From assembly GCA_965206595.1 (NCBI GenBank), contig OZ242214.1, positions 2,368,001 through 2,432,000 of the forward strand: a stretch of DNA of 64,000 nucleotides, written 5' to 3'. This DNA is from Candidatus Latescibacterota bacterium. GTDB taxonomy: Bacteria > Latescibacterota > UBA2968 > UBA8231. Every line of letters starts with the position of its first letter. Within the stretch, counting starts at the first letter, position 1. The notes beneath the pieces are model-generated. The model was given only the letters and a program-made list of their open reading frames with translations, did not search any database and was not told the origin of the DNA. Positions 27,128-48,031 of the stretch are shown here, in pieces. The position numbers were made by a program, and so were the translations under genes.

Positions 27128-28426
27128 TCAGAAGCGGATGGTAAACCGGGTAGGTCCGGACGGCGGGCTCTCGAGGGAGAAGGCGAAACCGTGCCGGCCC
27201 AGGATCTCCTGGACCAGGGTCAGGCCGAGGCCCTGCCGGTTCTCCCTGGTGCTGAAGAACGGGGTGAACAGATTGCCCGCCGCTTCGGGGTCGATTCCCG
27301 GCCCGGTATCCTCGACCACGGCGAAAGGCCGGTCCCCGGTCTGCCCGAGGCGGACCGTTATCCTGCCCTTCTCGCCGATCGCCTCCACCGCATTCTTCAG
27401 GATATTGACGAACACCTGCTCCATCTGGCTCTCGTCCATCGGCACCGGGTCGAGGTCAGCCTGAACATCCCACTCCCACTCGATTCCGAGGCGCTCGCAC
27501 TCGGCCCGCATCAGCAGGGCGATGCCGCGCACAAGGGCCTCCAGGTCGACCGGCTGCGGGCGCGGCGCCGGCAGCTGCACCACCTCGGCGAAGCTGCGCA
27601 TGAAAGCGCTGAGACGGTCGATGCGGCCGCTGGCCACCTGCAGGGCGTTCTCGAAATCGCCGCGGTCGGCTTCCCGCAGCTGACCCTTGTAGTTGAGGCA
27701 GGAGTTGAGGAGGGAATTGACCGCCCCCGTTGAATTGTTGACCTCGTGTGCGAGCAGGCGGATGACCTTCTCGTAGGCCGCCTTCTCGGAGAGGCGCAGC
27801 TCCTCGGTCAGCTCCTCCATCAGGATGAAGGCGCGCGGGAACCCCTTGTCGAGGAACTGCAACTTGCGGCAGCGCACCCGCTGGCCCGACAGGGACAGCA
27901 CCTGCGACTCGCCGACCGACAGCTCCTGCAGGGAGCGGGCGAACGCCGTTCCCAGCTCTTCCAGGCACCGGCCGCGCGCCTCGCTTTCGGCCACCCCCAG
28001 CAGGCGGGCGGCGCTGGGATTGGCCAGGGCGACCTTGCCGTCGAAGTCGAGGGTCAGGATCCCCGACGGCGAGGCCGCCAGGATCTTCTCCAGGAAGAAA
28101 TGCTGTTCCTGCAGCCGCGTGCGCTCTTCCCGCAGCTGGTCGATCATGCGGTTGTACACGCCCACCAGCCCGTCCATCTCCGGCTGGCCCACCTCGATGA
28201 ACTTGCTGGTGAAGTCGCGCTCGCCGATGAGCTCGGCGCCGGTGTGGATCAGGTCGAACGGCACCCGGAACCGCCGGATCAGGCGCGCGCCAACCAGGAG
28301 GGACGCCAGGAGGAGCAGGTCGAACCCCAGCAGGTACTGCCAACCTTCTATCAACAGATGTCCGGCCACCGCGCATACAAGGTGAATGCAGACGAGGTAG
28401 CCGACGAGCTTGAAGCGCAGACTCAA
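27128..28426 (-). CDS. Sensor histidine kinase (2 TM, PAS, HisKA, HATPase; NtrY-like)
   Basis: LAHEVNN, NILKNAVEA, EDTGPG, LFTPFFST, GLGL; TTG start at 28426. Confidence 0.9.
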   Translation of the reverse strand: MSLRFKLVGYLVCIHLVCAVAGHLLIEGWQYLLGFDLLLLASLLVGARLIRRFRVPFDLIHTGAELIGERDFTSKFIEVGQPEMDGLVGVYNRMIDQLREERTRLQEQHFFLEKILAASPSGILTLDFDGKVALANPSAARLLGVAESEARGRCLEELGTAFARSLQELSVGESQVLSLSGQRVRCRKLQFLDKGFPRAFILMEELTEELRLSEKAAYEKVIRLLAHEVNNSTGAVNSLLNSCLNYKGQLREADRGDFENALQVASGRIDRLSAFMRSFAEVVQLPAPRPQPVDLEALVRGIALLMRAECERLGIEWEWDVQADLDPVPMDESQMEQVFVNILKNAVEAIGEKGRITVRLGQTGDRPFAVVEDTGPGIDPEAAGNLFTPFFSTRENRQGLGLTLVQEILGRHGFAFSLESPPSGPTRFTIRF

Positions 28427-28506
28427 GGGGTGAGCCCATGTTTCTCGAAGCGGCGGTAGAGCGCCGCCCGGCTCAGGCCCAGGGCCTGGGCAACCCTGCT
28501 GATGTT
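28406..28506. repeat. Direct repeat copy A (regulator 3' end + kinase start)
   Basis: Matches 31703-31803; the 91-bp core 28416-28506 has 3 mismatches. Confidence 0.92.
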
Positions 28507-28557
28507 GGAGGGCTCGAAAAAAGAGAGACAGGCGCTTCGGGGAGCCAATTACGAATT

Positions 28558-28977
28558 TTAAATTTTGTCTTTGTTGAGCAGGACCAGGACAAAGGGATTG
28601 GCAATTGTAGTTTTCCCGAAACGCTTTAGAAGTTGAGCCTCGTTGCGTTTGTCGAGATCCTCCCTTTGGATCACGCGCTGGACAGCCGGTTGACTTAGGC
28701 CAGGTATGCGAACAGCGAAAAACGGCCACAATGCTTCAGATTCGTAGTGCTTGTCGAGATCCGGAAAGTCGGTGAGCGGAGGAACACCCTTCTGACTTCG
28801 GAAGTCATCGGTGTATTCGAAATGCCACTTCCCGTCCTGGAGTGATAGAAGCCCAACTTCCAGATCGCGGTATTGCAACCGGAAGTCGGCGGTCTCCTGT
28901 TCCGGAGTCAGAAGCTGCTCGCGGCCGTCTTGCCGCGACAGAATCTTCTTCAGGGTAGAAATAGAGATCATGGGCAT
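28558..28977 (-). CDS. HipA N-terminal-like (Couple_hipA/HipS-like) protein
   Basis: VGLLS..DGKWHFEYT, LWPFFAVRIP, LLKRFG. Confidence 0.75.
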   Translation of the reverse strand: MPMISISTLKKILSRQDGREQLLTPEQETADFRLQYRDLEVGLLSLQDGKWHFEYTDDFRSQKGVPPLTDFPDLDKHYESEALWPFFAVRIPGLSQPAVQRVIQREDLDKRNEAQLLKRFGKTTIANPFVLVLLNKDKI

Positions 28978-29879
28978 CCTCAGTCAGGTAATCAGATATC
29001 AATATCAGCTTGAACCGATGTTTGAAATCGATACAATCGCCGTTCCATGCATTCCACAATCATCTCCCGGCGCAAGGGGCTCATTAGTGGCTGGAACTCA
29101 CTGTCAAGCATTTCTTTGAACTGTCGTAGGAATTGAGGTCGGTATAGACCTGAGAGCACTGCACGGAGATCGGGATAGGAATGGTGGATTTTCTGAATGA
29201 GGGAAAAATGATCGGGGTCGTCTTCTCCATTCCAGCCAGTTTTTGGTTTCGAGTTTTTGACATACCGCTCGAAGAAGGCATGCAACCGTTGCGGATCAGG
29301 ATTCTGTTTTACAGCTTGAAGTTTCGACTCTGAATCGTTCCAGAAAAGTGCACGTGCGCTGTCGTAAATGGGAGCAAAAAAAGACTCATGGCGTGCGTGG
29401 GTGTGAACCACGACTCCCCAATTGTAATGATGCCGATCATTATTCCCTACGATGGCATCGAAAGCGAGCATTCGAGTGTACGCCCCAAGAATGGAACTCG
29501 CCTGACCGGGAAACTGAACTTTAATAGCTTCCTCGATGAACTGGAAAGTAAACAAATCCCGGGTTGCTCCAGCCCGCTCTACTTCTTCTACAAAATCCTT
29601 GTCTTCCAGGTAGCCTGCAAATATCTCAGCCTCGTGAACAAGGCTTTGATTGGGTCCGAGGAAATACCGGCTTAGGAATCGGACCTGACCATGCGCTGAA
29701 ACGAGCAAAGACGCGGCCATTTTCAGACCGAGCAGTTGCCCCACCCTCGTAAGCAAATGCTCCGTAACAGACTCGTTAGGGTACCATTTATGCCCAACCT
29801 TGGCAATATACGCGGGCCATTTTCGAGGATTGGACCGCTTGGCTTTTCCATAGGTGTAGACGCGTATGAAGTTCTTTGG

Positions 29880-31500
29880 GTAACCGTTCAGTCCCCCCTG
29901 CAGTAGTTTGAGCATATAAAGAAATACCTAAGCGGGTTTTCGGGTTCGTCGGTATTTTCGGGATCGGTTGTGTGTTGCAGATTTCCCTGGATACGGCGAC
30001 CCCATGAAGAGACCTCCTGAGAGTACGATTTCCGAAGGCGACCTGCGCCAGCGCATTGTCCAGCTTGAGCAGATCGTGGAACAACAGACGGCGCGCATCG
30101 GGGAGCTGGAGCGGGAATTGGCCCGCCGCAAGGGGCGCTCCCGCCGCGGTGCCCGGGCCGCCTCGTCGCAATCGGGCGCTTCCTCCTCGCCGCGCACCGA
30201 CACCTCCCGACGCCGATCCTCGGGGCGCTCGCCGGGCGGACAGCCCGGGCACGAAGGACCCGGCCGCTCGTGGGTATCGGTGGAGCAGGTGGACGAACGG
30301 ATCCCGGTCAAGCCGAGTACGTGCCACGGATGCGGGCACCCGTTGACGGGAGACGATCCTCATCCGCAGCGTCACCAGGAAGTCGTCCTCCCGCCGCTGC
30401 GGGCCGAGGTCATCGAGTATCAGTTGCACACCCTGCGCTGCGGTCACTGCGACCGCCTGACCGCAGCCGGTTTGGCCCGAGGGCGTGTCGCGCCACACCT
30501 TCGGTCCCAGCGTGCAAGCCTGGGTCGGCCTGCTGGCCGGGGCCTACCGGCTGAGCAAGCGCAACATCCGGGCGTTGTTGTCCGACGCCTTCGGCCTCGA
30601 GGTGTCGCTGGGTACGGTCAGCCGACTGGAACGGGAGGTGGCCGCGGCCCTGGCGGCTCCGGTCGAGGAGGCGCGCGCCTTCGTTCGCCGACAGGGCCTC
30701 GTCAACGTCGACGAGACCGGCTGGCGCCAGCGCCGCGCCAAGGCCTGGTTGTGGACCGCGGTGACGGCCGGCGTCACCGTGTTCGCCATTCGCCCAAGCC
30801 GGGGACGGGACGGGGTCGATGAGGTGCTGGGTGCGGACAACCGGGCGGTGGTCGGCTCCGATCGCTATTCGGCCTACGCGCATCTGCCGCTACGACGCCG
30901 GCACGTGTGCTGGGCTCATCTGCGGCGCGCCTTCGAGGAGTTCGTGGCCCGGGGCGGAGAGGCCGGGCGCGTCGGTCAACACCTGTTGGACCGCAGCGAG
31001 CAGCTGTTTACCTGGTGGCATCAAGTCCGCGACGGCACCCTGTCCCGCGCCCGCTTCCAGGACTATATCGACGATTTGTGTCTGCGCTTTCGTTTTCATT
31101 TGTGCTATGGTCAGCAGTTCGCCGACGCCAAGACGGCGGCCACCTGCGCCAATCTCCTCGACCTCGGGCCGGCCCTGTGGACCTGCGCACGCCGGCCCGG
31201 CGTCGAGCCGACCAACAACGAAGCCGAACGAGCCCTTCGCCATGGCGTGTTGTGGCGTCACACCAGCTTCGGTACCCACAGTGCCGAAGGCAGCCGTTTC
31301 GTAGAGCGCCTGCTCACGGTACGCGATACCCTGCGCCAGCAGCAGCGCAACGTCCTCGACTATCTCAGGATGGCCTGTGACGCGGCCGTGTCTCAGCAGC
31401 CGGCGCCCTCGCTGCTGCCTTCAACCCACTCCGCCATTCGCTAATATTCTGCTACCATTCCGCCCCCGGCCCCAACCTGCCAGGGGAACTGAACGGTTAC
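29880..31500 (+). mobile_element. IS66 family element (single-ORF, ISBst12-like), 1621 bp
   Basis: Terminal IRs GTAACCGTTCAGT at both ends; 8-bp TSD TTCTTTGG at 29872-29879 and 31501-31508. Confidence 0.95.
30004..31444 (+). CDS. IS66 transposase; 1-nt frameshift at ~30475
   Basis: GGQPGH, CxxC zinc finger, VDETGW, SDRYSAY, CWAHL, TNNEAERALR. Confidence 0.9.
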
Positions 31501-31702
31501 TTCTTTGGAGCCTCGCCGGCAATGGTTTGGTCCACTATGGTGTAATACCCCTTGCGAAGAGGAGGCAACACGCCTTGGCTGCTGATCTCGAATCCAGACC
31601 AATTGATCACTTGCTCCTGCGACAGCTGTTGCTCCAATAGCCCAGAGCGGTATGGCACAGTGGTTTCGAATCTCCCATCAAAATCAAGTAACTTCGACAA
31701 AT

Positions 31703-31803
31703 GAGCTTGGTACGCAGACTCAAGGGGTGAGCCCGTGTTTCTCGAAGCGGCGGTAGAGCGCCGCCCGGCTCAGGCCCAGGGCCTGGGCCACCCGGCTGAT
31801 GTT
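31703..31803. repeat. Direct repeat copy B
   Basis: Matches 28406-28506. Confidence 0.92.
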
Positions 31804-33087
31804 CCCCTTGTAGTGCTCCATGCAGCGGACGATCATCGAGCGCTCCAGCTCGTCGAGGGTCATGGTTCCCGGGGCCGGCAGGCCGGCCTGCCCACCCTGC
31901 CCTTCCACGGGCTGCATCGCCAGGGCGGCTTCGAAATCGCCGGTCCCGAGGACCTGGCCGGAGCTCATCAGGGCGGTCCGCTCCACCAGCTGCTTGAGCT
32001 GGCGGATGTTGCCCGGCCAGGGCAGGGCCTGCAGCCAGCCGAGGGCGGCGGCCTCGATCTCCAGGTCGCGGCGGTATACATGGGCGGCTCCCAGAGCGAA
32101 GTGGCGCGCCAGCTGCGGTATGTCCCCCGGCCTCTGGCGCAGGGGTGGCAGGTGCAGGACGATGAGGTTGAGGCGGTAGAGCAGGTCCTCGCGGAAGGCC
32201 CCCGACTCGACCAGCTCCAGCAGGTTGCGGTTGGTCGCCGAGATCACCCGCACGTCGACGGAACGGGTCCTGCTCGACCCCAGCACTTCGTAGGTGCGGT
32301 CCTGCAGCACGCGCAGGAGCTTGACCTGGCAGCCCGGGGCGAGGTCGCCGATCTCGTCGAGGAAAATGGTCCCTCCGTCGGCCAGGGCGAAGCGGCCGGC
32401 GCGATCCTGCCGCGCGTCGGTGAAGGCCCCCCTGACGTGCCCGAACATCTCGCTTTCGAACAGGGTCGTGGAGATGCCGCCGAGGTTGACCTTGACGAAC
32501 GGCTGCTCGCCGCGGCTGCTGTTGCGGTAGAGGGCCTGGGCGATCTCGTCCTTTCCGGTGCCGCTCTCCCCAGTGATCAGCACCGATGCCTCGGTGGGGG
32601 CGACGCGGCGGACGGCCTCGAGCAGCTTGAGGAGCTCGGGGTCGGAGCCGATGATGTTGGTGAAGTCCCCCCGGCGGTCCAGCTCCTCGCGGGTCACGGT
32701 TTTGGTCGCCGGTGTTGCCGCGGCGAGGCCGAGGGCGGTCTTCACCGCCTGCTGGATCTGGCTGTTGTTCCAGGGCTTGGTGACGAAGTCCGCGGCCCCG
32801 GCCTTGATCCCCTGCACCGCCAGCTCGATGGAGCCCCAGGCGGTAATCAGGATGACCGGCAGGCGCGGCCACCGCTGCTTGATCTCCCGCAGCAGCTCCA
32901 TCCCCTCCTCGCCGCTAGTCCTGCGCGAGAAGTTCATGTCCTGCAGGACCAGCTCGCACGGACCGCGAGCCAGCGATTCGAGGGCCTCCTGCGGAGAGGC
33001 CGCGGTCGCTGTCCGGTACCCCGCCTGCTTGAGCAGCAGGGACAGGGATGCAGTCACCGAGCTGTCGTCGTCCACTACCAGGATCAT
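31720..33087 (-). CDS. Sigma54-dependent response regulator (NtrC family)
   Basis: Receiver VVDDD, GESGTGK, GAFTDA, FLDEIG, Fis HTH. Confidence 0.95.
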   Translation of the reverse strand: MILVVDDDSSVTASLSLLLKQAGYRTATAASPQEALESLARGPCELVLQDMNFSRRTSGEEGMELLREIKQRWPRLPVILITAWGSIELAVQGIKAGAADFVTKPWNNSQIQQAVKTALGLAAATPATKTVTREELDRRGDFTNIIGSDPELLKLLEAVRRVAPTEASVLITGESGTGKDEIAQALYRNSSRGEQPFVKVNLGGISTTLFESEMFGHVRGAFTDARQDRAGRFALADGGTIFLDEIGDLAPGCQVKLLRVLQDRTYEVLGSSRTRSVDVRVISATNRNLLELVESGAFREDLLYRLNLIVLHLPPLRQRPGDIPQLARHFALGAAHVYRRDLEIEAAALGWLQALPWPGNIRQLKQLVERTALMSSGQVLGTGDFEAALAMQPVEGQGGQAGLPAPGTMTLDELERSMIVRCMEHYKGNISRVAQALGLSRAALYRRFEKHGLTP

Positions 33088-35041: not shown

Positions 35042-36901
35042 CCTTTGTTATTCATTCAACCCGCGCATAAGCGGACATAGGCGCTTCCGAGACCCCTTTG
35101 CTTAGCCTCAGAGGCTTGCGTCCCTTCTATAGTCGGCTTTTTGGGTAGAGCCGTCTCCTTATCTCTACCGACCTTGTTGAAATTGTACGCGCCTTCTCGA
35201 AGACGCTTGCCTTTGCGAGCCCATCATCCCGACCGACCCGGCCTGCGCTTACGCCATCGCCGCGTCCACCGGTTTGAGCGTGGCCAGAAATCTCCACAGA
35301 CGATCCCAGGCAGCCGCCGTCCCTTGGGTCAGGATGACGCCCACCCTGCGCCCATGCAAGGTGACGCGGGACGGCAGGCGCAGGTAGCGCCGTCGAAAAC
35401 TGTCCAGGCTCAGGGCCGTCGTCGAGCGTCCGTATGTGCGGGGCCGCCCGCGTCGGGCCTCGGCGCGTTCGGCGGCCTGGCGGCCCAGGTGAAGCAGGTT
35501 GTAGGCCAGCAGGTTCAAGGTCAGAAGCGCCTGGTTGGCAGCGAAGGCATCCCGGGACGGGGTGCGCTGACGCGGCTCTCGACCCCGGTAGTGTTGCTTG
35601 CGACGGGTGGTAGAGGAGAGCTGAGGCTGGAGGGTGGAGCTCAACTCGCCGAGCATGCGCTCGAAAAGGCCGCGCTGACGATAAAAGGCGACCAGGTCGC
35701 GGCCGCTCATCGTCTGGGGACTCTGGTCGGTGATCAGGAAGAAGTGGCGGGCGATGGGCAGCTCTTCCGTCTCGGAAGGGACCAGGACCAACACCACCCG
35801 CCGGGGCTGCGCCCAGGACCTGGCTTGATAGCGCAGCTCGCGACAGCGAAAACCCTCTTCCCGCAGCTCTTCCGGGTGCTGCGCCAGCTCCTGCTGATAG
35901 CCTTCCACCCAGGCACGAGCCAGCTCCTCCAGGCGCGCATTCTTCTTGATGCGCGCCACGTACGAGGTGTCGGCCCGCGCTTCCAGCTCACTCAGGAAAG
36001 ACCCGCTCACCGAGGCCGCGTCGAAGCGCAGGATGAGGCGCCGGGCCAGATGCGACTGAATCCAGTCCAAGCGCTTGCCGAGAGCCTCTGAGGCGCCCTC
36101 ATGGGCGTGCACGTTGCCCGGCCGCAGCACGGCACCGAAGAAATCGCCCGTCTGCGCCGAGCCGAGGAGCAGGGGATGGTACCCCGAGGCGTGGAAGTAG
36201 CCGTTGTATTCGACCCCCGCCTGGTGCCCGTGCGCCGGCATCGGCAGGGCATCCATGTCGACGGCCAACTCCTCGTATTTCATCCGTCCTTCCAGCAGCC
36301 GGCAACGAGACCGGGCGCTGCGCAGGACGGCTTCCTCCAACACCTCGCGGTTATAGGCAGTCGAGGCTTGCTCGAGCAGGCGCGACAGCGTCGGCTGACT
36401 GGCCAGTCCCTGCGGCCGGTCTTCGTCGCCGCTGCGCAACGGCGCCTGCCCTTTGCGATCGCTGACCGCCAGACGCAGGATCGGATCTTGGCGCAACGCG
36501 TCGGCGTCGGCGGCGTGGGTCCAGCCCTGTGCCAGCAGCACGATCTGTGTGCGCAGCAGCTCCGGCAGCGGGTGCGTGATCTGGTCTTGGGTACGGAGAT
36601 CCTCGAAGTGGGCGTCGACCCAATCCAGAACCCGGCTGTGTTCGAGCAGTTGACGCAACATCAGCGCACCGGTGTCGCTGCCAAGGTGGGTGGGGCGGGC
36701 TTCGATGTGGATGGAGCGGTTGAAAGACGGCTGAATCGGCCCGGCTTGCTCGGACTCGGTGTGTGACGGTAATTCACCCATTGGGTGTCCTACTGTGTGA
36801 TGGGTTCAAAGGGCGATACTGCCTTGTGTTTCCCTCTGAAATCTAAGCATGGGAGGCACCCAGTACAGCCCTCTCCACTAAAATTCCATGAATAACAAGG
36901 G
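35042..36901 (-). mobile_element. IS1380 family element
   Basis: 14-bp IRs CCTTTGTTATTCAT / CCCTTGTTATTCAT; no TSD. Confidence 0.85.
35249..36781 (-). CDS. IS1380 transposase (DDE_Tnp_1_4)
   Basis: SDTGAL, LRQDP, LASQPTLSRL, HGHQAG..YNGYF, LRPGN, YRQRG..E. Confidence 0.9.
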   Translation of the reverse strand: MGELPSHTESEQAGPIQPSFNRSIHIEARPTHLGSDTGALMLRQLLEHSRVLDWVDAHFEDLRTQDQITHPLPELLRTQIVLLAQGWTHAADADALRQDPILRLAVSDRKGQAPLRSGDEDRPQGLASQPTLSRLLEQASTAYNREVLEEAVLRSARSRCRLLEGRMKYEELAVDMDALPMPAHGHQAGVEYNGYFHASGYHPLLLGSAQTGDFFGAVLRPGNVHAHEGASEALGKRLDWIQSHLARRLILRFDAASVSGSFLSELEARADTSYVARIKKNARLEELARAWVEGYQQELAQHPEELREEGFRCRELRYQARSWAQPRRVVLVLVPSETEELPIARHFFLITDQSPQTMSGRDLVAFYRQRGLFERMLGELSSTLQPQLSSTTRRKQHYRGREPRQRTPSRDAFAANQALLTLNLLAYNLLHLGRQAAERAEARRGRPRTYGRSTTALSLDSFRRRYLRLPSRVTLHGRRVGVILTQGTAAAWDRLWRFLATLKPVDAAMA

Positions 36902-38321
36902 CTTAGAGCAGCTCACCTATCTGATCTTCCTCAAGATGGCCGATGAATACGCCAAACCACCGTACAACCGCGATGTCGGCATCCCAGCCGAATTCAACTG
37001 GCAGAGCCTGAAATCGAAGAACGGTGCGGAACTCGAAAACCACTACTTAGCCTTGCTTCGCGCGCTTGGTACCAAGACGGACATGCTGGGCCAGATCTTT
37101 ACCAAAGCCCAGAACAAGATCCAAGACCCGGCGAAACTGTATCGTCTCATCGACATGGTGGACGACACCGAATGGGTGAGAATGGGTGCCGACGTAAAAG
37201 GAGATATTTACGAAGGACTTCTTGAGAAGAACGCCGAAGACCGGCGTACCAAGTCAGGCGCGGGCCAGTATTTCACGCCGCGCGCCCTCATCCGTGCCAT
37301 GGTAGAATGCGTACGGCCCGAGCCTGGCGCACTCATCGCCGACCCGGCCTGCGGTACCGGCGGTTTCTTTCTCGCCGCCTACGACTTCATCACCAATCCA
37401 GACAACTTCAACCTGGACAGGAATCAGAAGGCATTCCTGAAGCACGAGGCGTTTCACGGCAACGAGATCGTCGCCAATACACGCCGTCTGTGCCTGATGA
37501 ACATGTTCCTGCACAACATCGGCGAGATCGACAGCGGCGTGTCCATATCACCCAATGACTCGCTGGTGGCCGATGGCGGAGAGCGCTTTGATTATGTCCT
37601 CGCAAATCCGCCCTTCGGCAAGAAAAGCTCCATGAGCTTCACAAACGAGGAGGGCGAACAGGAGAAAGACGACCTCACCTACAACCGGCAGGACTTCTGG
37701 GCGACGACCTCGAACAAGCAACTCAACTTCGTGCAGCACATCCGCACGATGCTCAAGACCACTGGCCGTGCTGCCGTAGTCGTTCCCGACAACGTGCTGT
37801 TTGAAGGCGGTGCCGGTGAGACGATCCGCAAGAAGCTGCTGGACAACACCGACCTGCACACCATCCTGCGCTTGCCGACCGGCGTGTTCTACGCGCAAGG
37901 CGTCAAGGCCAATGTGATCTTCTTCGACAATCACGAGGCCAGCCCGAATCCCTGGACGAAGCAGGTCTGGTACTACGACTACCGCACCAACATTCACCAC
38001 ACTCTGAAGAAGAACCCGATGCGCTTCGAGGATCTGTCGGACTTCATCAACTGCTATAACCCGCAGAACCGGTATCAGCGCAAGGCGACTTGGGACGAAA
38101 ACGACGCACCGGAAGGCCGTTGGCGCAGTTACAGCTACGAAGAAATCAGCGCACGCGACAAGACCAGTCTCGACATCTTCTGGCTCAAGGACAAAAACCT
38201 GACGGACTTGGACAACCTGCCAGATCCCGACGACCTCGCCGAAGAGATCATCGAGAACATAGAGGCAGGTCTCAACAGCTTCCGCGAGGTGCTCGCAGGT
38301 TTGCGGGTGGTAGGTTCTTGA
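36888..38321 (+). CDS. hsdM: Type I R-M methyltransferase subunit, N-terminally truncated by IS1380
   Basis: EQLTYLIFLKM, GAGQYFTPR, DPACGTGGF, NPPF, LRLPTG; first codons MNNKG come from the IS end. Confidence 0.9.
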   Translation: MNNKGLEQLTYLIFLKMADEYAKPPYNRDVGIPAEFNWQSLKSKNGAELENHYLALLRALGTKTDMLGQIFTKAQNKIQDPAKLYRLIDMVDDTEWVRMGADVKGDIYEGLLEKNAEDRRTKSGAGQYFTPRALIRAMVECVRPEPGALIADPACGTGGFFLAAYDFITNPDNFNLDRNQKAFLKHEAFHGNEIVANTRRLCLMNMFLHNIGEIDSGVSISPNDSLVADGGERFDYVLANPPFGKKSSMSFTNEEGEQEKDDLTYNRQDFWATTSNKQLNFVQHIRTMLKTTGRAAVVVPDNVLFEGGAGETIRKKLLDNTDLHTILRLPTGVFYAQGVKANVIFFDNHEASPNPWTKQVWYYDYRTNIHHTLKKNPMRFEDLSDFINCYNPQNRYQRKATWDENDAPEGRWRSYSYEEISARDKTSLDIFWLKDKNLTDLDNLPDPDDLAEEIIENIEAGLNSFREVLAGLRVVGS

Positions 38322-38842
38322 ACGTACTAACCGGGTACCTCGAACCACGTTGCGCGTACGGGTAGAGCCCTACGGCCTCGTCGGTTAACCGGCATGTCGC
38401 TGTGCGCCAAGGCCAAGCCTGTCGCGCCTGATTCATGAGGGGAACAGCCAGCGCCACAGTTCTCAGATTTACGTGCCCCACCTGCTGCGCTACACCGACC
38501 AAGCCGACATCGTCGCCGGCTTTATTGCCCTCGTGCCGTTCATGGCGGTCGCGTCCCTCCAAGACGTCGACATGCGGGGGGCCGCGGCCGACGATTTTGT
38601 CCTCGCGGTCGCGCCAGCATTTCGAGCTGGGCACATGAGGCCGGATGGTCATAAGGGGATTCCTTGGGAGGGGCCGCCATCGCGACTTGCTGGTCGGAAA
38701 TCGAGGGCAATGTGTCCGTCTGCCCGGGGCGGGGTCGAATTGTGGAGAGCACTGACAGGGCCTTCAGACGGCTTTCTTTGCGGACCTTCCCCCGTGGGGA
38801 GAGGTAATTCGCTGGCCCAGTAACAGGAACGAGAGATGTTCT

Positions 38843-40389
38843 ATGGCGAACTCTGAACACATACAGTGGCTGCTCGAGGGCGTGGGCGCGTGGAATGAAC
38901 GACGCAAACGCGAGCACTTTAAGCCCGACCTGCGAGGGGCCCATATTCCAGGAGAGTTCGGAGAGGGCGGCTTGGATGAGAGCGCAGAGCCAGAAATCCG
39001 GCGAATGGTCTTCCGAACAGAAGACGCTGGCGTCGATCTTTCGGGCATCGATCTGAGTGAGGCTGAACTTCAAGATGCAATTCTCACGAATGTCAATCTC
39101 TCCAACGCAAATCTTCGGGGCGCTGACCTCAAGGGATGCGACTTCGACGGAGCCATCCTCAATGAGGCGGACCTTGATTTCGCGGACCTCCGCCGCTGCA
39201 CGTTCCATAGCGGGAGACTTCAAGGCGCGAAAATGTTTGGCGGAAACCGGGTATCTGGCAGCCATAACAGCATCTCGCTGTGCCATGCGGAGTTTTCGGG
39301 GCAGATCTCAGGGGAGCGATTCTCGCCAATCGTGAACTTTCTGGTGCCGACCTTCGTTACGCAAAGCTCGAAGGCACGAATTTATTTCGTACTCAGCCTT
39401 GGAAAGCGATTCTTTTTTCAGGAGGAAATGCTGACGAAGGAACTTCGACCGGCGTTAGGTCTGGCGAGACAATAGAGAGTGTCCGGTGCGTGCTCCAAGA
39501 GTGTTCCAATATCAGATACGACTTTCCTGATCGCGTCCTGTATTTTCGCGGCGAAGCTAAGGTGTTCCCCGAACTGCGTCCCTCGCTAATGCGAAAGAAG
39601 AATGGAACATTCATGCATCTCAAGTCGGAAGCCGAAATGATGGTCGACCTGATGTCACGTCGGCCAGTGGAATTTGACAATCTGAAGTCAGCGCTGGCAC
39701 AATGGGTCCTTGCGCAGCACCACAGGCTCCCGACCCGGCTACTCGACATCACCCAAAACCCCCTCGTTGCTTTGTTCCACGCCTGCCAAGAACCGAAAGA
39801 AGGTTCCGGCGAAGGGCCCGGACGCTTGCATGTCTTCGCGGTGCCAGAGGACCTGATAAAACCGTTCAACAGCGACTCGATTAGCGTCATTGCCAATTTT
39901 GCTAAGCTCTCATTCAAGGAACAAAAGCGGCTGCTTGGGAAGAGGAAGGAGGATACTCCGGATGACGTTGATCCGGGTGGCCCCGAATGGGCAGGCGCTT
40001 ATGAGCAGGCCATGGGCCGCCTCTATCACTTCATCCGTCAGGAGAAGCCGCACTTCCAAGAGAAAATCAACCCCAGAGATCTCTTTCACGTCTTCGTCGT
40101 TGAACCCCAGAGATCATTCGAGCGCATCCGGGCACAATCAGGGGCTTTTCTCATTTCGGCGTTTCATGACCGATTCGAACGCAGTGAGATTCTAAAGCAA
40201 AACATCGGCATTCCGGTGTACGATCATTATACTCTGGAAGTGTCGGAAGAAAAGAAACCATGCATTTTAGATGAACTACGCTTGGTGAACATCACTCCCG
40301 AGACCCTTTTTCCTGGTCTCGACGAAGCGGCGAAAGCAGTAACGCAACGTCATTCTGAACAACCTGCACAGGGAGCCGCGGAAGGGTGA
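38843..40389 (+). CDS. Pentapeptide-repeat + FRG domain protein; 1-nt frameshift at ~39300
   Basis: AWNE..PDLRGA, A(D/N)L repeats; YFRGE, LRPSL, AQHHRLPTRLLDITQNPLVALFHAC, RIRAQSGAF, LFPGLD. Confidence 0.85.
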
Positions 40390-41803: not shown

Positions 41804-42724
41804 ATGACCGCCGGGACTCCACGCATACTGAGCATCGAAAAGATCTGGGACCGGGCCCCGCACAACGCCTTCACCGACCTGCTGCGCCACCGCGGCCGCT
41901 GGTGGTGCGCGTTCCGCGAGGCGGACGACCACGGCGCCAGCATCGGCGGCCTGCGGGTGCTGGTGTCCGACGACGGCGACCGCTGGTCTAGCGGAGGACA
42001 CGTGACCGAGGAGGGGGTCGACCTCCGCGACCCCAAACTCTCCGTCATGCCGGACGGCCGCATGCTGCTGCTAGCGGGCGGCACGATCATCGACGATGAC
42101 GGCAGGTACCTCACCCGCTCTCCGCGGGTAGCGTTCTCCGACGACGGAACCTCCTGGACCTCCCCGGTCCGCTGCCTCGCCGAAGACCACTGGCTGTGGC
42201 GGGTGACCTGGCACGGCGGCACCGGCTACTCCGTCTCCAAGCTCGGCGAGGGGAGCAATCCCCGCCGCGGCCTGCTCTACAGAACGACCGACGCCCTCGA
42301 CTGGCAGTGGGTCACCGAGTTCCACCTGCCCGACAACATCTGGACCGCCAGCGAAACCACCTTGCGCCTCATGCCTGACGAGATGATGGTCGCCCTGATC
42401 CGCCCGGACTGGATCGGCCGCAGCTGGCCGCCCTACACCGACTGGTCGTACACCCGCATCGAGGCCAGGCTGGGCGGCCCCAACTTCATCCGCGTGCCGG
42501 ACGGCACCCTGTGGGCGGGCTCGCGCGGCACCCACGACGGCGAGCGCCGCACCGTCCTCGCCCGCATGACGGCAACCCGGTACGAGACCGTGGCGCGCCT
42601 GCCCAGCGGCGGCGACTGCTCCTACCCCGGGATGGTCTGGCACGACGGCCTGCTCTGGATCAGCTACTACTCCAGCCACGAAGAGAAGACGAGCATCTAC
42701 CTGGCGAAGGTCGACGTCTCCTGA
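41804..42724 (+). CDS. Sialidase/BNR-repeat family protein
   Basis: HNAFTDL, Asp-boxes SDDGDRW and SDDGTSW, GDCSYPG, YYSSHE..IYLA. Confidence 0.8.
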   Translation: MTAGTPRILSIEKIWDRAPHNAFTDLLRHRGRWWCAFREADDHGASIGGLRVLVSDDGDRWSSGGHVTEEGVDLRDPKLSVMPDGRMLLLAGGTIIDDDGRYLTRSPRVAFSDDGTSWTSPVRCLAEDHWLWRVTWHGGTGYSVSKLGEGSNPRRGLLYRTTDALDWQWVTEFHLPDNIWTASETTLRLMPDEMMVALIRPDWIGRSWPPYTDWSYTRIEARLGGPNFIRVPDGTLWAGSRGTHDGERRTVLARMTATRYETVARLPSGGDCSYPGMVWHDGLLWISYYSSHEEKTSIYLAKVDVS

Positions 42725-42784
42725 TCCGAAGCGCGGGCCGGCTCCGCATCCCGCATCAGCTGTTCCACCCGTTACCCGGCCGCC

Positions 42785-43876
42785 TCACTGCGGCAGGTAC
42801 GAGGTGTAGAACCGGTGCCAGTTCCCGTACATGACGTTGGCGACGTCCCCGCTGCCGTAACCGCGGCGCTCGAGGATCGGGGCCAGCTTCTGGTAGTCGG
42901 CGATGCTGTCGACTTCGAACGGAGCCCCGTCGATTCCGCCCTGGCCGTCGGTGTCGCCGCCGATTCCGGCGTGCAGGGAGTTGCCGGCCAGCTGGCAGAC
43001 GTGGTCGACGTGGTTGGCGATATGCTCCAGGGTCACCTCTTCGCGGGCGTAGTACTCCCGCCGCGGGTAATCTTCGGTGTGGGACCACTCGATCTCCTGC
43101 TTCTCTCGCAGCATCCAGGTGTCCATCGAGGCCCCGACCACGCCGTCCCGCTCGATCACCGCCCTGACCTGCCCGTCGCTGAACTGGCGCTCTCCCGGGG
43201 CCAGGGCGCGGCAGTTCTGATGGCTCGCCAGGATCGGGCCGGAGTAATGGTCGAGGGCTTCCCAGAAACTGCGGTCGGCGATGTGCGTGGTGTCGAGCAG
43301 CATGCCGCAGGCCTCCATCTCCCGCAGCAGCTCCGGTCCCGGGGGCAGCAGCCCTCCCTCGGTCCCGGTGCCGGTGCCGTGGGCGTAGCGGCTGCGCCCG
43401 TAGTGGGTGAGGCTGACCACGCGCACCCCGTCTTCCCACCACTCCCCCACCTGCCCCGGCGTCAGGATCGGGTCGGCCCCCTCCATGCCGATCAGGCAGC
43501 CGACTGGCAGCCGGGAGTCCCCTTCCTGCTGCTCCCACTGTTCGGCGAGGGCGCGCAACTGTCCGGCGGTGGTGACGACGACCGCCTCCCCGGTGCTCTC
43601 CAGGCCGCGGTAGAGGGCGAGCTGCCCCTTGGCCACGGCGTACGTCACCTCCTTGCCGCGATACCCCGGCAGGATGCTGTCCTTGCGCAATCGCCGCGCC
43701 GCGATCTTCATCAGCGCACAGTACACCCCCCCTCTGCGCATCTCGGGAAGGCAGGCGAAGGGAATGTTGGACGGGTTGGCGTCCGCGGCGCGCAGCTCGT
43801 CGAGCGAAAGCGTCAGGTCCCTGTTGAGGTCGAGGGCGCCGTGCGCCATCGGGTAGTCGCCGTCGAAAATCAGCAC
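42785..43876 (-). CDS. Membrane dipeptidase (M19) family amidohydrolase
   Basis: MEGAD, LTHYG, DTTH, ASHQN, RQFSD, GGDTDG, GNW.RF; AAGGAG RBS. Confidence 0.87.
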   Translation of the reverse strand: MLIFDGDYPMAHGALDLNRDLTLSLDELRAADANPSNIPFACLPEMRRGGVYCALMKIAARRLRKDSILPGYRGKEVTYAVAKGQLALYRGLESTGEAVVVTTAGQLRALAEQWEQQEGDSRLPVGCLIGMEGADPILTPGQVGEWWEDGVRVVSLTHYGRSRYAHGTGTGTEGGLLPPGPELLREMEACGMLLDTTHIADRSFWEALDHYSGPILASHQNCRALAPGERQFSDGQVRAVIERDGVVGASMDTWMLREKQEIEWSHTEDYPRREYYAREEVTLEHIANHVDHVCQLAGNSLHAGIGGDTDGQGGIDGAPFEVDSIADYQKLAPILERRGYGSGDVANVMYGNWHRFYTSYLPQ

Positions 43877-44432
43877 GGCTTGTCTCCTTTCGTTGTCGGC
43901 AGCTGTTTCTGGAAGATTTGGCGGTCCCGGGTTGCCAGGGCGGGTGGCACTCCGGGCTGACGGAGCGGTTTCGGCAACCGCCCCTGACCGCGGGGGAAAG
44001 GTCGCTTTGAAGGGAGGGCCGGGCAATCGCCGGCGTCGCTTTCCGGCAGCGATCGCGCGACCGACGAACCCACGTCCCCGCCCATTGCAGTCCCCTCATC
44101 GCCGGCTCCCACACATGCGGGCATCGGGCCCGCCTCCGCCTGCAGATACGGCGACACTGATGGCCCCGGCCCCTTTTCCGGCACGCTTGCTTCGCGAGAG
44201 CCCCCGGGACCGCTCCCCGGTTGGCCCCGCCTTCACCGCATTGGATATGTTTGGGCGGCACCGGACGGAAGGAGCGCCGCAGAACCCCGGGCCCTGAGCT
44301 GCCGGAAGATCCGGCCGCTGCCCTGTCCCGCCGCGGCCGGAGCCGCTGAAAACCTTCATCACCCCAGGCGCCCTGCGAGCTCCCGCGGCAAAAGCAGAAT
44401 TGCCAGCCACCCCCCTTTTCCCGACCTGCCCA

Positions 44433-45911
44433 ATGAAAGCCGCCATCGCCCAGTTCATCTTCGAAAGCAACACCTTCACCCCCGGTCTGGCCGAGATCGA
44501 CCTCTTCAGGAAAGGAGGAGTCTTCCTCAAAGACGAAGCCGAGGTGCGCGCCTGGGCGGACGGGACCGACTCGCAGATGCACGGCAGCCTGGAGGTGCTC
44601 GCCGCCGCCGGCTGGGAGACCGCCCCCTGTTTCACCGCTCTCTGCGGCTCTTCCGCCGGACTCATGAGCGCTGCCTGCTTCCGCGAGATCGGCAGCACCC
44701 TGCTCGACCGGGTCGCCGCCGCGGCGCCGTTCGACGTCCTCATCCTCCACCTGCACGGAGCCGCAGCCGCGGAAGGGGAGGACGATCCCGAGGGCTACCT
44801 CCTCGAGAAGGTGCGCACCGACCTCGGGTACCGCGGCCGGGTCGTGCTCTCCCTCGACCTGCACGCCAACTTCACCCGCCGCATGCTGCGGCACGCCGAC
44901 GCGGTCACCGCGTACCGCACCTTTCCCCACATGGACTTCAGCGCCACCGGCGAGCGCGCCGCGCGCCTGGCCCTGCACCCGGGCCCCTTCACCCGCGCCG
45001 CGGCCAAGGTGTCCGTCCTGATGTCGCCGGCGGACAGCACCCATTTCGAGGGGCACCTGTGCGACCTGCTGACCCGCGCCCGCGAGCTCGAGCGACGCCA
45101 CGGCGACGTCCTCGACGTCTGCATCCTGCCGGTGCAGCCCTGGATGGACATCGACGAAATGGGCTCTTCCGTGGTCGTCACCGCTGCCGGTGGTGGGGTC
45201 CCGCTCGACGAGCTGCAGAAACTGGCCGGCGAGTGGTACGCCCAGCGGCACGGCTGGAAAAACCGGCTCACCCCCTGGCCCGAGATTCTGGAGAAGCTCC
45301 GGCGCAAGGGGCCGGAGCCCTGGGTGCTGGTCGACACTTCGGACGCGACCGCGGGAGGCTCCCCCGGTCACAGCGCCGAGGCCCTGCGGCGGCTGCTGCC
45401 GCTCCGGGAGGATCTGCCCGGCAAGGTGCTGCTCTGGGTGGTCGACCCGGGCACCGTGGCCGCCGCCCGCCGCGGGGCGACACGCTTCGCCACCGGCGAC
45501 CCCCCGGTCTCCTGGGAAGGGCGCGTGACCTGGACGGGAGAGGGGAACTACAAGGCGCGCGGAGGGGCCTACACAGGGCAGGCCTTCTCGATGGGGGACG
45601 CCGCGGTGATCGAGTCCGGGCAGATTCAGCTCGTAGCCTGCTCGTACCCGGCGCTGACCCCGGATCCGGCCTTCTACGAGTGCGCCGGGCTGCAGCCGGA
45701 CGCCGCCCTCGCGGTCATGGCCAAGAGCATGACCGGCTGGATGGCCGCCTTCGGAGCCGGCTGGGAGCGCGGCATGCTGTTCGACGGCCCGGGGATCTGC
45801 ACCCTGGACTTCGCCTCCGTCCCGTTCACGGGGAGCGGCCGCGGACTCTGGCCTGTCGATCCGGACCCGGCGAGTCCGGTAGCGATCTGGGAACCGGGTG
45901 CCGCGGGTTGA
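44433..45911 (+). CDS. M81 family metallopeptidase (MlrC-like)
   Basis: ESNTF, LHGA, DLHAN, YRTFPHMD, D..D..GG. Confidence 0.9.
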   Translation: MKAAIAQFIFESNTFTPGLAEIDLFRKGGVFLKDEAEVRAWADGTDSQMHGSLEVLAAAGWETAPCFTALCGSSAGLMSAACFREIGSTLLDRVAAAAPFDVLILHLHGAAAAEGEDDPEGYLLEKVRTDLGYRGRVVLSLDLHANFTRRMLRHADAVTAYRTFPHMDFSATGERAARLALHPGPFTRAAAKVSVLMSPADSTHFEGHLCDLLTRARELERRHGDVLDVCILPVQPWMDIDEMGSSVVVTAAGGGVPLDELQKLAGEWYAQRHGWKNRLTPWPEILEKLRRKGPEPWVLVDTSDATAGGSPGHSAEALRRLLPLREDLPGKVLLWVVDPGTVAAARRGATRFATGDPPVSWEGRVTWTGEGNYKARGGAYTGQAFSMGDAAVIESGQIQLVACSYPALTPDPAFYECAGLQPDAALAVMAKSMTGWMAAFGAGWERGMLFDGPGICTLDFASVPFTGSGRGLWPVDPDPASPVAIWEPGAAG

Positions 45912-45924
45912 TCCGGGCCCTGCT
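45763..45924. repeat. 162-bp direct repeat copy A (3' end of the MlrC-like gene + 13 nt)
   Basis: Matches 47870-48031 with 2 mismatches. Confidence 0.95.
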
Positions 45925-46108
45925 CGCGTTGTGCTGTCTGGAAGAACGCGGCGAGCGTGCGGCTGCGGTGCTCGATGCCTTCCATTGTCCCGAGCCGTCG
46001 TGTACAGTGGGCAACTCGAAAAAATCGACTGGCTGCTTCAGGTCGGACGTGTACATTCACTTATCCACATGCGGTTCTTCAATCTCAGAAAAATTGGCCT
46101 CCGCCCTG

Positions 46109-46537
46109 ATGAAATACGCAGGGAATAATTCAACGCGACGGATCGCGAAACCGGGTCACTTCACCCAAGTCGAGCTCGACAACTTCGCGGAGAATGCCCG
46201 GTATGAAGGAAGCGCCCTCCACAAGAGCAAGCCGGCCGACTACGGCTTCCATCCGCAGACCAACCCAAGAGCCTCAAAGTCCCTTTGCGACGACATCCGT
46301 GTGATACTTCTATCCGAGGCGAGGCAGTTGTTGAGTTCAGGATTTGAACGCGGCATGGTCAGCACACGTATATCTGGTGACCTGCCAAAGTATGTTTGGG
46401 CGATTGATTGTAATGGCGAAGCGTACGAGGCGAAGCTCGGGGGGGACGGACGGAGCTACCACGGCTACCGGTTGAACCACGACGACAAAAAGATGCGCCA
46501 ATGGGTGATCGAAGAATGGAAACGGCGGAACGACTGA
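46109..46537 (+). CDS. Uncharacterised 142-aa protein (putative toxin/nuclease)
   Basis: ATG 46109; YEGSALHK, PKYVWA, YHGY motifs; lower GC; overlaps the next gene. Confidence 0.7.
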   Translation: MKYAGNNSTRRIAKPGHFTQVELDNFAENARYEGSALHKSKPADYGFHPQTNPRASKSLCDDIRVILLSEARQLLSSGFERGMVSTRISGDLPKYVWAIDCNGEAYEAKLGGDGRSYHGYRLNHDDKKMRQWVIEEWKRRND

Positions 46538-47832
46538 AGTTTTCGCTTGTTCCCGAAAAGTTGCAGGCCGGCTCTCCGGAGGAGCGGGCGGCCTTCGGCA
46601 CCATTGCCGTCATCGCAAACGGCATGGTGCTCACCGAAGGGGTAGGCATCGACGGCAACGAGCTTCGAAACGGCCCGCGGGTTTCCGGCTACTACCTGGC
46701 GGAATGGCTGGTATGGAACTGGTGGCGGCTGCGCTGGGAACCGCGACGTTTTTACGCTGAAACCGAGTCGTCGTGGGAGTGGGGTTTTGCACACCATATG
46801 TCATCCCTCGGCGAAGGGTACGTTTGGCCCAACATCGAGATCGTGTCTGATGGACTCTTGATGCAGCTCGCTTCCTCACCTTCTACCGACCCGCACGCAA
46901 AGGCATTCCGTTACGTTGGGGCGCCGGGAATTGAGACCGTCGCGGTCGAGGCGTTCGAGGATGCGGTTCAGGAGTTTGTCCGGATCGTTATTGACCGTCT
47001 CGACGATTCTGGCATCTGCGACACCAACCTGCATCGGCTGTGGCGAGACCTGAAACGGGAGCAGGGTGCGGAAACCTCTCCTTTTCGGCGTATTGAGGCG
47101 ATGCTAGGGTACGACCCAGACGAGGGAAACGAGACCGAGATACGAGAGCAACTCACCGATGCGGCCAGCTTGGGAGAGAATGCGGTGGCCGAGTTGGCGG
47201 CCGATGCAGGGCAACTCAACGAGAATCCGGTACGAGCTGCCGAGGTGAGGGAATGCGCCCGGAAATTCGGCTTCGACGTGCGTGTTGAAGATGCTGCGCA
47301 GCTTGATGACACCAGCGCCACCCTGGCTTGGGGCGAGGAAAAAGCCTGGCGTGTTGGTTATGCCATGGCGCAAGCTTTGCGAGCGGCGGAAGTCCTGAAC
47401 GGCAAGCCCGTCGTCAACGCCGTATTGTGCGAACTCGCTGGAACTACTGAGAATGTGATTCAGGATCGCAGTCGGACCGCTGACCGTATTTCATTCGCTT
47501 TGGACGACGACGGCGGGCGTTCGCGCATTGCACTGCGGCCGGAGCAGGATAAATTGCGGCGTTTCGACTTGGCACGGTTGATGGCGGACAGGCTGTTCCT
47601 GAATAACAGGTGCGAGCCGTTGCTTCCTGCCACGCGGTCATATACCTATCGGCAGAAGGCCCAACGCGCGTTCGCCGCGGAGTTCTTGGCGCCGATCAGG
47701 GCGGTGGAGGAGTTCCTGAATGGCGACGTATCAGAGGAAACGCAAAATGACGCCGCCGAATACTTCAACGTCTCGCCGCTCGCGATCCATTGGCAGCTTG
47801 TCAACAACAATCGCATCAGCCGATCAGACTGA
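46516..47832 (+). CDS. Uncharacterised protein with a degenerate ImmA/IrrE (M78)-like C-terminus
   Basis: RRFDLARLMAD (HExxH lost), QRAFAAEFLAP, AEYFNVS....QL.N. Confidence 0.72.
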   Translation: METAERLKFSLVPEKLQAGSPEERAAFGTIAVIANGMVLTEGVGIDGNELRNGPRVSGYYLAEWLVWNWWRLRWEPRRFYAETESSWEWGFAHHMSSLGEGYVWPNIEIVSDGLLMQLASSPSTDPHAKAFRYVGAPGIETVAVEAFEDAVQEFVRIVIDRLDDSGICDTNLHRLWRDLKREQGAETSPFRRIEAMLGYDPDEGNETEIREQLTDAASLGENAVAELAADAGQLNENPVRAAEVRECARKFGFDVRVEDAAQLDDTSATLAWGEEKAWRVGYAMAQALRAAEVLNGKPVVNAVLCELAGTTENVIQDRSRTADRISFALDDDGGRSRIALRPEQDKLRRFDLARLMADRLFLNNRCEPLLPATRSYTYRQKAQRAFAAEFLAPIRAVEEFLNGDVSEETQNDAAEYFNVSPLAIHWQLVNNNRISRSD

Positions 47833-47869
47833 ACTGAAATCAACCTGCGTTCTGACCACCGGGATTTCC

Positions 47870-48031
47870 GGGAGCGCGGCATGCTGTTCGACGGCCCGGG
47901 GATCTGCACCCTGGATTTCGCCTCCGTCCCGTTCACGGGGAGCGGCCGCGGACTCTGGCCTGTCGATCCGGACCCGGCGAGTCCGGTAGCGATCCGGGAA
48001 CCGGGTGCCGCGGGTTGATCCGGGCCCTGCT
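47870..48031. repeat. 162-bp direct repeat copy B
   Basis: Matches 45763-45924. Confidence 0.95.

Follow-up and report, generated by a model that had tools for sequence, protein, structure and literature searches.

Two small gene cassettes lie between duplicated host gene junctions in the DNA analysed here, a stretch of 64,000 nucleotides (nt) from the forward strand of contig OZ242214.1 (positions 2,368,001 to 2,432,000) of Candidatus Latescibacterota bacterium. This whole stretch is referred to as the window, and the single-contig genome of 7.05 Mb that carries it as G000. Each cassette comprises two genes of lower guanine-plus-cytosine (GC) content and is bracketed by long, slightly diverged direct repeats of the adjoining host sequence (Table 1). 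A preliminary description of the window had drawn attention to this arrangement, and both repeat pairs were recovered where it had placed them. For comparison we used two sister species of the same genus (G001 and G002), a member of a different genus (G012) and a member of a different family of the same class (G021).

Two cassettes between repeated gene junctions

Site 1 lies between the genes of a response regulator and a histidine kinase. The repeat finder returned two copies of 101 nt with 94% identity (6 mismatches), and each is the sole match of the other in G000 (E = 1.7e-33); the uniqueness of repeat pairs was judged throughout by self-BLAST of the whole genome. On the minus strand, the repeat comprises the last 84 nt of the regulator gene with the TGA stop, the overlapping TTG start of the kinase gene and 17 nt past the stop; stop and start overlap as TTGA. 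The insert is 3.2 kb long, and its GC content at positions 28500-29999 is 0.48-0.51 compared with 0.66-0.72 in the flanks. Its cargo consists of two co-oriented genes encoding a HipA_C kinase followed by a Couple_hipA-like protein (Pfam scores of 36.0 bits with a cut-off of 30.5 and 34.3 bits with a cut-off of 22.5, respectively). Both proteins match components of the PADLOC candidate system PDC-M03.

The HipA-like character claimed in the preliminary description is borne out by the PDC-M03 match, but that description had missed an IS66-family insertion sequence (IS) nested in the kinase gene and splitting it. This element of 1622 bp has terminal inverted repeats and an 8-bp target duplication at its ends. 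At least eight further copies are present in G000 (94-100% identity) and many in G001. The kinase frame is not intact: in comparison with the intact gene of G021, which encodes 345 amino acids (aa), the IS severs about 66 N-terminal codons. To judge from its sequence, the IS66-family element is a later, separate insertion into the cassette. Its transposase frame is split into two overlapping open reading frames (ORFs; zf-IS66 and DDE_Tnp_IS66), possibly reflecting a programmed frameshift or decay. Uninterrupted versions of the module were found in five genomes of genus g18, which belongs to another family. They share 73-76% identity with cargo 1 over the main coding part, and their ends and flanks differ. 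As these genomes match the two cargo genes and not the flanks, the operon itself is the moving unit.

At site 2, the repeats measure 162 nt and are 99% identical (2 mismatches by the repeat finder; sole match in G000, E = 4.4e-74). They take in the 3'-terminal 149 nt of the gene for an M81/MlrC peptidase and extend 13 nt past its stop. The 1.9-kb insert has a GC content of 0.54-0.62 at positions 46000-47999, with the same 0.66-0.72 in the flanks, and its cargo is a 142-aa ORF overlapping a 443-aa ORF. At both sites the repeats span a stop codon and the adjacent junction and both host genes keep their ends, as had been proposed. Neither a tRNA gene nor a Phage_integrase (PF00589) match was found in the window, and the ORFs of the two cargos contained no recombinase domain (Pfam). 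These scans agree with the earlier statement that the cassettes have no integrase and no neighbouring tRNA. As also stated there, the repeats are far too long to be a transposase duplication.

The two proteins of cargo 2 had no match in PADLOC or NCBIfam. For the 443-aa protein, the Peptidase_M78 profile (PF06114) gave a match below the cut-off (E = 0.049; 13.9 bits, cut-off 22) that covered profile positions 71-118 only. The protein has at least 1615 homologs, and none of the 120 listed carries a Pfam domain. A structure model built from 37 sequences (predicted local distance difference test score, pLDDT, 88) had no Foldseek match in the PDB at E <= 0.001. Structure alignment of model residues 274-443 pointed to CapP (7t5t; Z 12.0, root-mean-square deviation 2.9 over 152 residues) and also to IrrE/PprI (Z 9.3-9.7). 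Residues 9-163 aligned weakly with CdiI immunity proteins (Z 6.2), and the N-terminal domain showed a weak likeness to Whirly/PUR folds as well.

HExxH is the zinc-binding motif of the ImmA/IrrE metalloproteases. Among 37 aligned members of the 443-aa family, HExxH was absent and no invariant or near-invariant histidine occurred in residues 274-443; the consensus across the C-terminal region reads RRFDLARLxGDRLF. Because no histidine is conserved, the modelled C-terminal domain looks like a protease fold without the catalytic motif. The label 'ImmA-like' given to this protein earlier is backed by the CapP/IrrE-like fold and the Pfam match below the cut-off, and not by the motif. A toxin-antitoxin-like or defence role of cargo 2 is a guess. 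The designation of the cassettes as defence genes draws on the PADLOC candidate match of cassette 1; it has no other firm basis, and the kinase gene of that cassette is broken by the IS.

Empty sites in related genomes and read support

The preliminary description had suggested a search for empty alleles, and such alleles were found at both sites. In G001 and G002, the matches to the site 1 regulator and kinase overlap by 101 nt, and in G012 by 92 nt, i.e. one copy of the repeat is present and the cargo is absent. At site 2, the flank matches overlap by 157 nt in G001 and by 153 nt in G002, again as a single copy with no cargo. Moreover, cargo 2 had no DNA match in the 30 relatives searched. 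Both window cassettes are insertions. The comparison shows that they are specific to G000 or its lineage and that the repeats are copies of the local target.

Public read evidence was taken from the Logan contigs of four short-read runs (X3, X5, X6 and X8). Contigs from three studies crossed the cassette junctions. The passage from the kinase through copy B into cargo 1 was covered in X5 and X8, the junction of copy A with cargo 2 in X8, and the junction of cargo 2 with copy B in X3, X5 and X6. In the latter three runs, the cargo-2 contig (45895-48031) has both of its limits precisely at repeat ends. In a pure population, the two mismatches of pair 2 should prevent such contig breaks, so that alternative junctions may exist at site 2. 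Contig depths of cargo and flanks differ between runs and strains are mixed, and no inference was drawn from depth.

Recurrence of the repeat pattern in the genome

A genome-wide scan for direct repeats at short range, which had also been suggested, revealed that the pattern recurs. Self-BLAST of G000, filtered for unique direct repeats of 45-450 nt with at least 85% identity and a distance of 0.5-80 kb, yielded 38 pairs with lengths of 46-360 nt, and about a dozen loci display the pattern. Fifteen pairs were examined, namely the two window cassettes and 13 others picked for a lower-GC interior. Beyond the window cassettes, these included four clean loci (c21, c2, c33 and c15) and about six that were complex or uncompared. 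Protein-family scans took in 11 of the 15 loci (the two cassettes and nine others); c20, c23 and c25 were left out of the scans and of the comparison with relatives.

Family matches of the toxin-antitoxin or defence type were obtained in seven of the 11 scanned loci. In addition to PDC-M03 in cassette 1, they comprise Phd/YoeB (c2), DUF4258 with an MqsA-like partner (c15), MazE with a weak PIN match (c33), DUF433 (c7), a Schlafen AlbA_2 protein with a PLD-like ATPase (c0), and DUF5131 (PDC-M41B/M30B, 7e-100) with an HD protein (c24). The likeness of cassette 2 to such families is at the level of the fold only, and c8, c21 and c32 gave no match to a toxin-antitoxin or defence family. No recombinase domain was detected in any of the 11 scanned cargos. 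Locus c8 was rejected as a clean case, having a repeat of only 46 nt and an ordinary-looking cargo (WD40, TonB receptor).

The sister species display empty, filled and differently filled alleles of the clean loci. Locus c21 is empty in G002, and c2 is empty in G002 and filled in G001. Locus c33 is filled in G001; in G002 one repeat copy is followed by a different 2-kb cargo (AAA_21 and DUF4276). Different cargo at the same junction, another point raised in the preliminary description, was thus encountered outside the window. A relative of the c33 cargo is present elsewhere in G002. Locus c15 is filled in all three species of the genus. Furthermore, G021 harbors a Gp49/HTH_37 toxin-antitoxin pair between 156-nt repeats (98% identity) that span the stop of its PDC-M03B gene.

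Two details of these loci were noted in passing. The c15 cargo of G001 (region L043, G001:C1:1636500-1647500) contains a second pair of direct repeats of about 130 nt (1558-1686 and 6551-6680, 95-97% identity). These lie 5 kb apart, span the 3' end of an IS4-like transposase gene and appear to be a second, nested instance of the pattern. At c2 (region L024, G000:C1:1372500-1378500, around 3580-3590), the downstream host gene begins with an ATG contributed by the end of the cargo, with a GAAGAGG stretch ahead of it; in the empty G002 allele, the gene has its native GTG start.

Junction asymmetry and repeat differences

The position of the cargo relative to the gene ends is asymmetric. Of nine loci whose repeat takes in a 3' gene end, eight have the stop codon 0-29 nt away from the repeat's cargo-side end; in c0, the exception, this distance is 116 nt. 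In all three loci with a repeat over a 5' end, the distance between start codon and cargo is 0-18 nt. These distances were taken from the repeat and gene tables rather than from a dedicated script. One clean intergenic junction combined with one arbitrary in-gene junction is what would be expected if a fragment consisting of a gene end and adjacent cargo entered via one homologous crossover. Were two breaks to occur at random, in contrast, the gene boundary should fall anywhere within the repeat. Moreover, cargo and host genes are co-oriented in 10 of the 11 loci with callable cargo ORFs (exception: c8).

The 11 repeat families share no 7-10-mer beyond chance, as 96-100% of 200 random trials reached the observed level. 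This lack of a common motif argues against one site-specific recombinase. Nor do the four junction sequences within a locus resemble one another. No microhomology was evident by eye at the cargo junctions.

Within the host reading frames, the mismatches between repeat copies comprise 41 synonymous and 36 non-synonymous changes over 12 loci, and 24 versus 6 in c21, c7, case 1 and c33; some of the gene starts behind these counts are first-start guesses (c2, c32). At c21, the two copies are 19 differences apart, of which 14 are synonymous; the pseudo-copy differs from G001 at 24 positions and the working copy at 15. Three sites pair the working copy and G001 against the pseudo-copy and G002, one site groups both copies, and one groups the working copy with G002. 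At site 1, the copies have no shared derived site and are 6 differences apart from each other and 4-7 from the sister species. At the kinase start, copy A reads ACC as in G001, and copy B reads CGC TTC, identical to G002. The site 2 copies share 11 derived sites relative to both sister species, and both mismatches are changes of the pseudo-copy. The c33 copies are 99.2% alike in G001 and 96.8% in G000.

A third repeat pair and neighbouring variable DNA

The preliminary description had listed a third, more decayed case to the left of the cassettes. A diverged repeat pair with a PIN-like ORF between its copies is present there (74-84% identity at the DNA level by the repeat finder), but no clean empty site was found among the relatives, in which the boundaries differ and are untidy. 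The left copy is a fragment, now diverged, from the 5' end of the gene for a Type ISP-like methyltransferase, and by eye the differences between the copies are mostly synonymous.

This third case sits in a defence island at window positions 15967-22152. The island encodes a protein with Schlafen AlbA_2 and HATPase_c_4 domains (15967-17406, minus strand), a TIR_2 protein (17363-17776, minus strand), the PIN-like ORF and the Type ISP-like protein, which has 1115 aa and no recognised nuclease or helicase part. Several insertions or deletions distinguish G001 and G002 in this region. Directly before the island, a low-GC gap (GC 0.52) contains two direct copies of 84 nt at 15737-15912 that are 77% alike and start with AATAAGACAG-like units.

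Variable DNA is also located between the two cassettes, at 35249-40389. It carries an IS4-like transposase gene (35249-36781, minus strand), an HsdM-like N6 methyltransferase gene (36888-38321) and a gene for an FRG/pentapeptide protein (39280-40389). In the public runs, the summed contig depth over the methyltransferase stretch was 1400-3100x versus about 20x nearby, which probably reflects conserved sequence from many organisms.

Table 1. Features of the two cassettes and of the third repeat pair, in order of window position
Feature	Position	Strand	Basis
Third case, left copy: diverged methyltransferase 5' fragment	17927..18030	+	repeat search
PIN-like ORF between the third-case copies	18144..18569	+	Pfam PIN_3 0.0032, below cut-off
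Type ISP-like methyltransferase/specificity gene; right copy of the third case at 18814-18929	18805..22152	+	Pfam Type_ISP_C 2e-39, N6_Mtase
Host histidine kinase; predicted TTG start at 28426	27128..28426	-	Pfam HATPase_c, PAS, HAMP
Pair 1 copy B: non-working regulator 3' fragment and working kinase start	28406..28506	-	repeat search, alignment
Cargo 1, second gene: HipA N-terminal-like domain	28558..28977	-	Pfam Couple_hipA 3.4e-8; PDC-M03B 9.6e-15; TIGR03071 5e-8
Cargo 1, HipA-like kinase, C-terminal part; first ORF codons (29879-29915) inside the IS	28992..29915	-	Pfam HipA_C 7.3e-9; PDC-M03A 2.4e-27
IS66-family insertion sequence, transposase frame split	29879..31500	+	Pfam zf-IS66, DDE_Tnp_IS66; copies in G000
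Cargo 1, HipA-like kinase, N-terminal piece, about 66 codons	31501..31700	-	alignment to intact genes of five g18 genomes
Pair 1 copy A: working regulator end, then non-working kinase-start fragment	31703..31803	-	repeat search, alignment
Host NtrC-type sigma-54 response regulator, 3' end within copy A	31720..33087	-	Pfam Response_reg, Sigma54_activat, HTH_8; orthologs in G001, G002, G012
Host M81/MlrC-type peptidase gene, 3' end within copy A	44400..45911	+	Pfam DUF1485, MlrC_C
Pair 2 copy A: working gene end	45763..45924	+	repeat search, alignment
Cargo 2, small ORF, 142 aa, 'SYHGY' motif, no family match	46109..46537	+	family scans; protein atlas: unnamed clusters only
Cargo 2, 443-aa protein, CapP/IrrE-like C-terminal fold without HExxH, weakly CdiI-/Whirly-like N-terminal domain	46501..47832	+	model, structure alignment
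Pair 2 copy B: non-working 3' fragment, then native downstream junction	47870..48031	+	repeat search, alignment
Downstream host gene, weak GHL10 match; predicted ATG start at 48038	48038..49651	+	Pfam; orthologs in G001, G002

Discussion

Junction asymmetry and allele-like pseudo-copies mildly favour a homology-dependent, Campbell-type insertion as the origin of these loci. A donor DNA fragment would carry the cargo beside a gene-end segment and would be either closed into a circle that enters by one Campbell-type crossover or anchored by one of its ends. Homologous recombination of the gene-end segment with the resident gene would then duplicate the shared segment. The clean junction would represent an old intergenic insertion and the other junction the arbitrary end of the fragment. 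As 50-300 bp of the target are found on either side, both host genes stay whole. In our weighing, such a homology-dependent route accommodates all loci, whereas the asymmetry and c21 sit awkwardly with an on-the-spot duplication. Our belief in this route is nevertheless evenly divided, because allele-like differences can also arise later. A single crossover with circles carrying a gene end had already been put forward in the preliminary description. The asymmetry, the lack of a motif and the allele-like differences make that proposal plausible, but later transfer of a finished locus or gene conversion could give the same signals.

Several points weigh against the homology-dependent route. The allele-like differences could stem from later homologous transfer of the finished locus or from gene conversion, and the first-start guesses behind part of the synonymous counts tell in the same direction. 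The pattern at site 2 is as compatible with an on-the-spot duplication as with a very close donor. A donor for site 1 would have to carry its cargo 17 nt inside the kinase gene or have a duplication of its own, and if donors had both flanks in common, no duplication would result from an ordinary double crossover. Three further loci were rejected as clean cases: G002 has the c0 cargo without the left repeat, the right copy of c9 is native on both sides, and at c24 part of the 'cargo' is also found in G002 and the locus has an IS on its right. Finally, none of the 15 contig joints listed (37 further joints lie outside this list) represents an empty site, a circle or an amplified form, so that the slots switchable at the population level, as envisaged in the preliminary description, find no backing there.

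The alternative that survives best is that break repair or replication created the duplication locally. Two breaks, or a template switch, separated by 50-300 bp and lying for instance on sister chromosomes, would be bridged by a captured piece of foreign DNA; the interval between them would end up copied on either side, and the incoming DNA would need no homology. This resembles the role of double-strand breaks proposed for restriction-modification systems. The near-identity of the site 2 copies with their 11 shared lineage-specific sites speaks for it, and so do the derived sites shared by the copies of c7 and c33 (5 and 6, respectively), the wide range of repeat lengths, and the presence of neither a recombinase nor a shared motif. 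Double-strand breakage has been suggested as common to all restriction-modification types in the accessible text of Furuta et al. (PMC2853133). However, such repair does not account for the 11 loci, out of 12, in which one cargo junction falls at a start or stop codon. It also sits uneasily with c21, where the distance between the two copies exceeds that of the working copy to the sister species, and with site 1, whose copies hold variants that are natural alleles in G001 and G002. We consider this origin rather unlikely.

Still less probable, and in our estimate a poor prospect, is that the repeats are attL/attR sites of small elements moved by a tyrosine or serine recombinase in trans (satellite- or CIME-like), or of islands that lost their integrase. 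Integrative elements at gene 3' ends do give slightly diverged direct repeats that restore the gene, and the 13 Phage_integrase matches of G000 could act in trans, although all of them lie at least 14 kb from these loci. The c15 cargo is 8 kb larger in G001 than in G000, as might be expected of such an island, but the extra 8 kb hold ISL3 and IS4-like transposases and no integrase. No recombinase occurred in any scanned cargo, serine recombinase families not having been searched genome-wide. In addition, the target differs at each locus without a motif common to the repeats, 5' gene ends are covered as well (c21, c2 and c32), the relatives of cargo 1 in five genomes of another family share the two genes and not the ends, and the window offers no tRNA target. 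A DDE transposon or IS as vehicle of the cassettes was rejected: the ends adjoin direct repeats of 101 and 162 nt, and inverted ends are found only on the nested IS. As for integron gene cassettes, which go with attC sites and a nearby IntI integrase, the window has no tyrosine recombinase. Repeats can mislead assemblers, but an assembly artefact of this metagenome-derived genome has a negligible chance, since the copies differ (94% and 99% identity) and hence are not one graph node used twice, their junctions are crossed by short-read contigs from three other studies, and sister species whose genomes were assembled separately also have the c33, c2 and c15 insertions. The remaining probability was assigned to routes outside those weighed here.

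Recombination between the flanking repeats would readily remove such cargo again. Because direct repeats invite deletion, addictive modules of the toxin-antitoxin or restriction-modification type would be over-represented among the survivors, together with defence genes that are of use. This expectation is inferred from the known behaviour of addictive modules. If the homology-dependent route is correct, any gene end could act as a landing pad and cargo would be retained only when addictive or useful, helping to explain why operons are peppered with such modules. A broader reading is that recombinase-free colonisation of gene junctions by addictive and defence modules, through circles of gene end and cargo that enter any relative by one homologous crossover, is general, provides exchangeable slots and is the main route of toxin-antitoxin gain in this lineage; we regard it as doubtful. 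If it were true, the flanking repeats would let cargo leave, amplify or be swapped. The movement of toxin-antitoxin and defence genes outside recognisable mobile elements is poorly understood, and the long-target-duplication pattern has been on record since 2000 for restriction-modification genes without a mechanism. The loci of this closed genome, together with the empty, filled or differently filled alleles of the sister species, offer a compact data set for testing homologous single crossover, break repair and a recombinase in trans against one another.

Comparison with known systems

Phage 21 and e14 at icd, and islands at the 3' ends of protein genes, bring a replacement gene end with the element. 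The cassettes resemble them in the slightly diverged direct repeats that include a gene 3' end and in the restoration of the gene by element-borne sequence. Unlike these elements, they lack an integrase within or close to the cargo and share no core, each locus has its own target, and the cargo measures only 0.4-3 kb. Insertion-duplication and homology-facilitated illegitimate recombination are laboratory phenomena in transformable bacteria (PMC3240628). One stretch of homology suffices there as well, and a Campbell-type event duplicates the homology around the insert; in contrast to those experiments, the route proposed here is deduced from sequence patterns only.

For the effector-immunity modules of the Vibrio cholerae type VI secretion system, sequential displacement with entry at a fixed gene junction is described in PMC5361080. 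One dedicated locus type is used in that organism, compared with many unrelated host junctions here. The V. cholerae modules reportedly enter by one-sided homology and leave gene fragments behind, and their displacement resembles the third case at 17.9-18.9 kb. With the HipA-family kinase systems and PDC-M03, cargo 1 shares matches to both components, HipA_C and Couple_hipA. It differs from HipA-family systems in having the kinase first and a separate N-domain-like protein after it, in the lack of a HipB-like gene and in the IS-broken kinase.

On their sequence features, both loci are cases of the 'insertion with long target duplication' known from restriction-modification genes, here with toxin-antitoxin- or defence-like cargo. 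The founding report of long target duplication for restriction-modification systems is said to be that of Nobusato et al. 2000 (Gene 259:99). Both share with the restriction-modification cases a small unit free of mobility genes between unique direct repeats of tens to hundreds of bp, an empty site with one repeat copy in a relative, repeats that often span a start or stop codon and leave the target gene whole, and addictive or defence cargo of foreign composition. For restriction-modification genes, repeats of 46-423 bp and no mobility genes are reported in the accessible text of PMC2853133. The mechanism is left open there, with double-strand breakage suggested (Furuta, Abe & Kobayashi 2010, PMC2853133). 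Furuta et al. searched for flanking repeats of more than 30 bp that are unique in the genome, for an empty site in a relative, and for inserts below 20 kb without integrase, transposase or phage genes explaining the insertion; all of this is found here, the nested IS being separate. They also asked for restriction and modification genes in the cargo, which our cassettes do not carry; this was a criterion of their search and not a mechanistic requirement.

Two reviews, in their accessible parts, tie long target duplication to restriction-modification systems only; one of them is from the same school (PMC3874152). We found no published report of toxin-antitoxin cargo in a long target duplication, subscription journals and supplements being beyond the search. 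The loci differ from the restriction-modification cases in their cargo of toxin-antitoxin pairs and other defence-like genes, in their host, which belongs to an uncultured lineage and not to genera such as Helicobacter, Haemophilus or Neisseria, and in the presence of about a dozen candidate loci within one genome. To the known pattern they add the junction asymmetry, the co-orientation of cargo and host genes, and the allele-like differences between the repeats.

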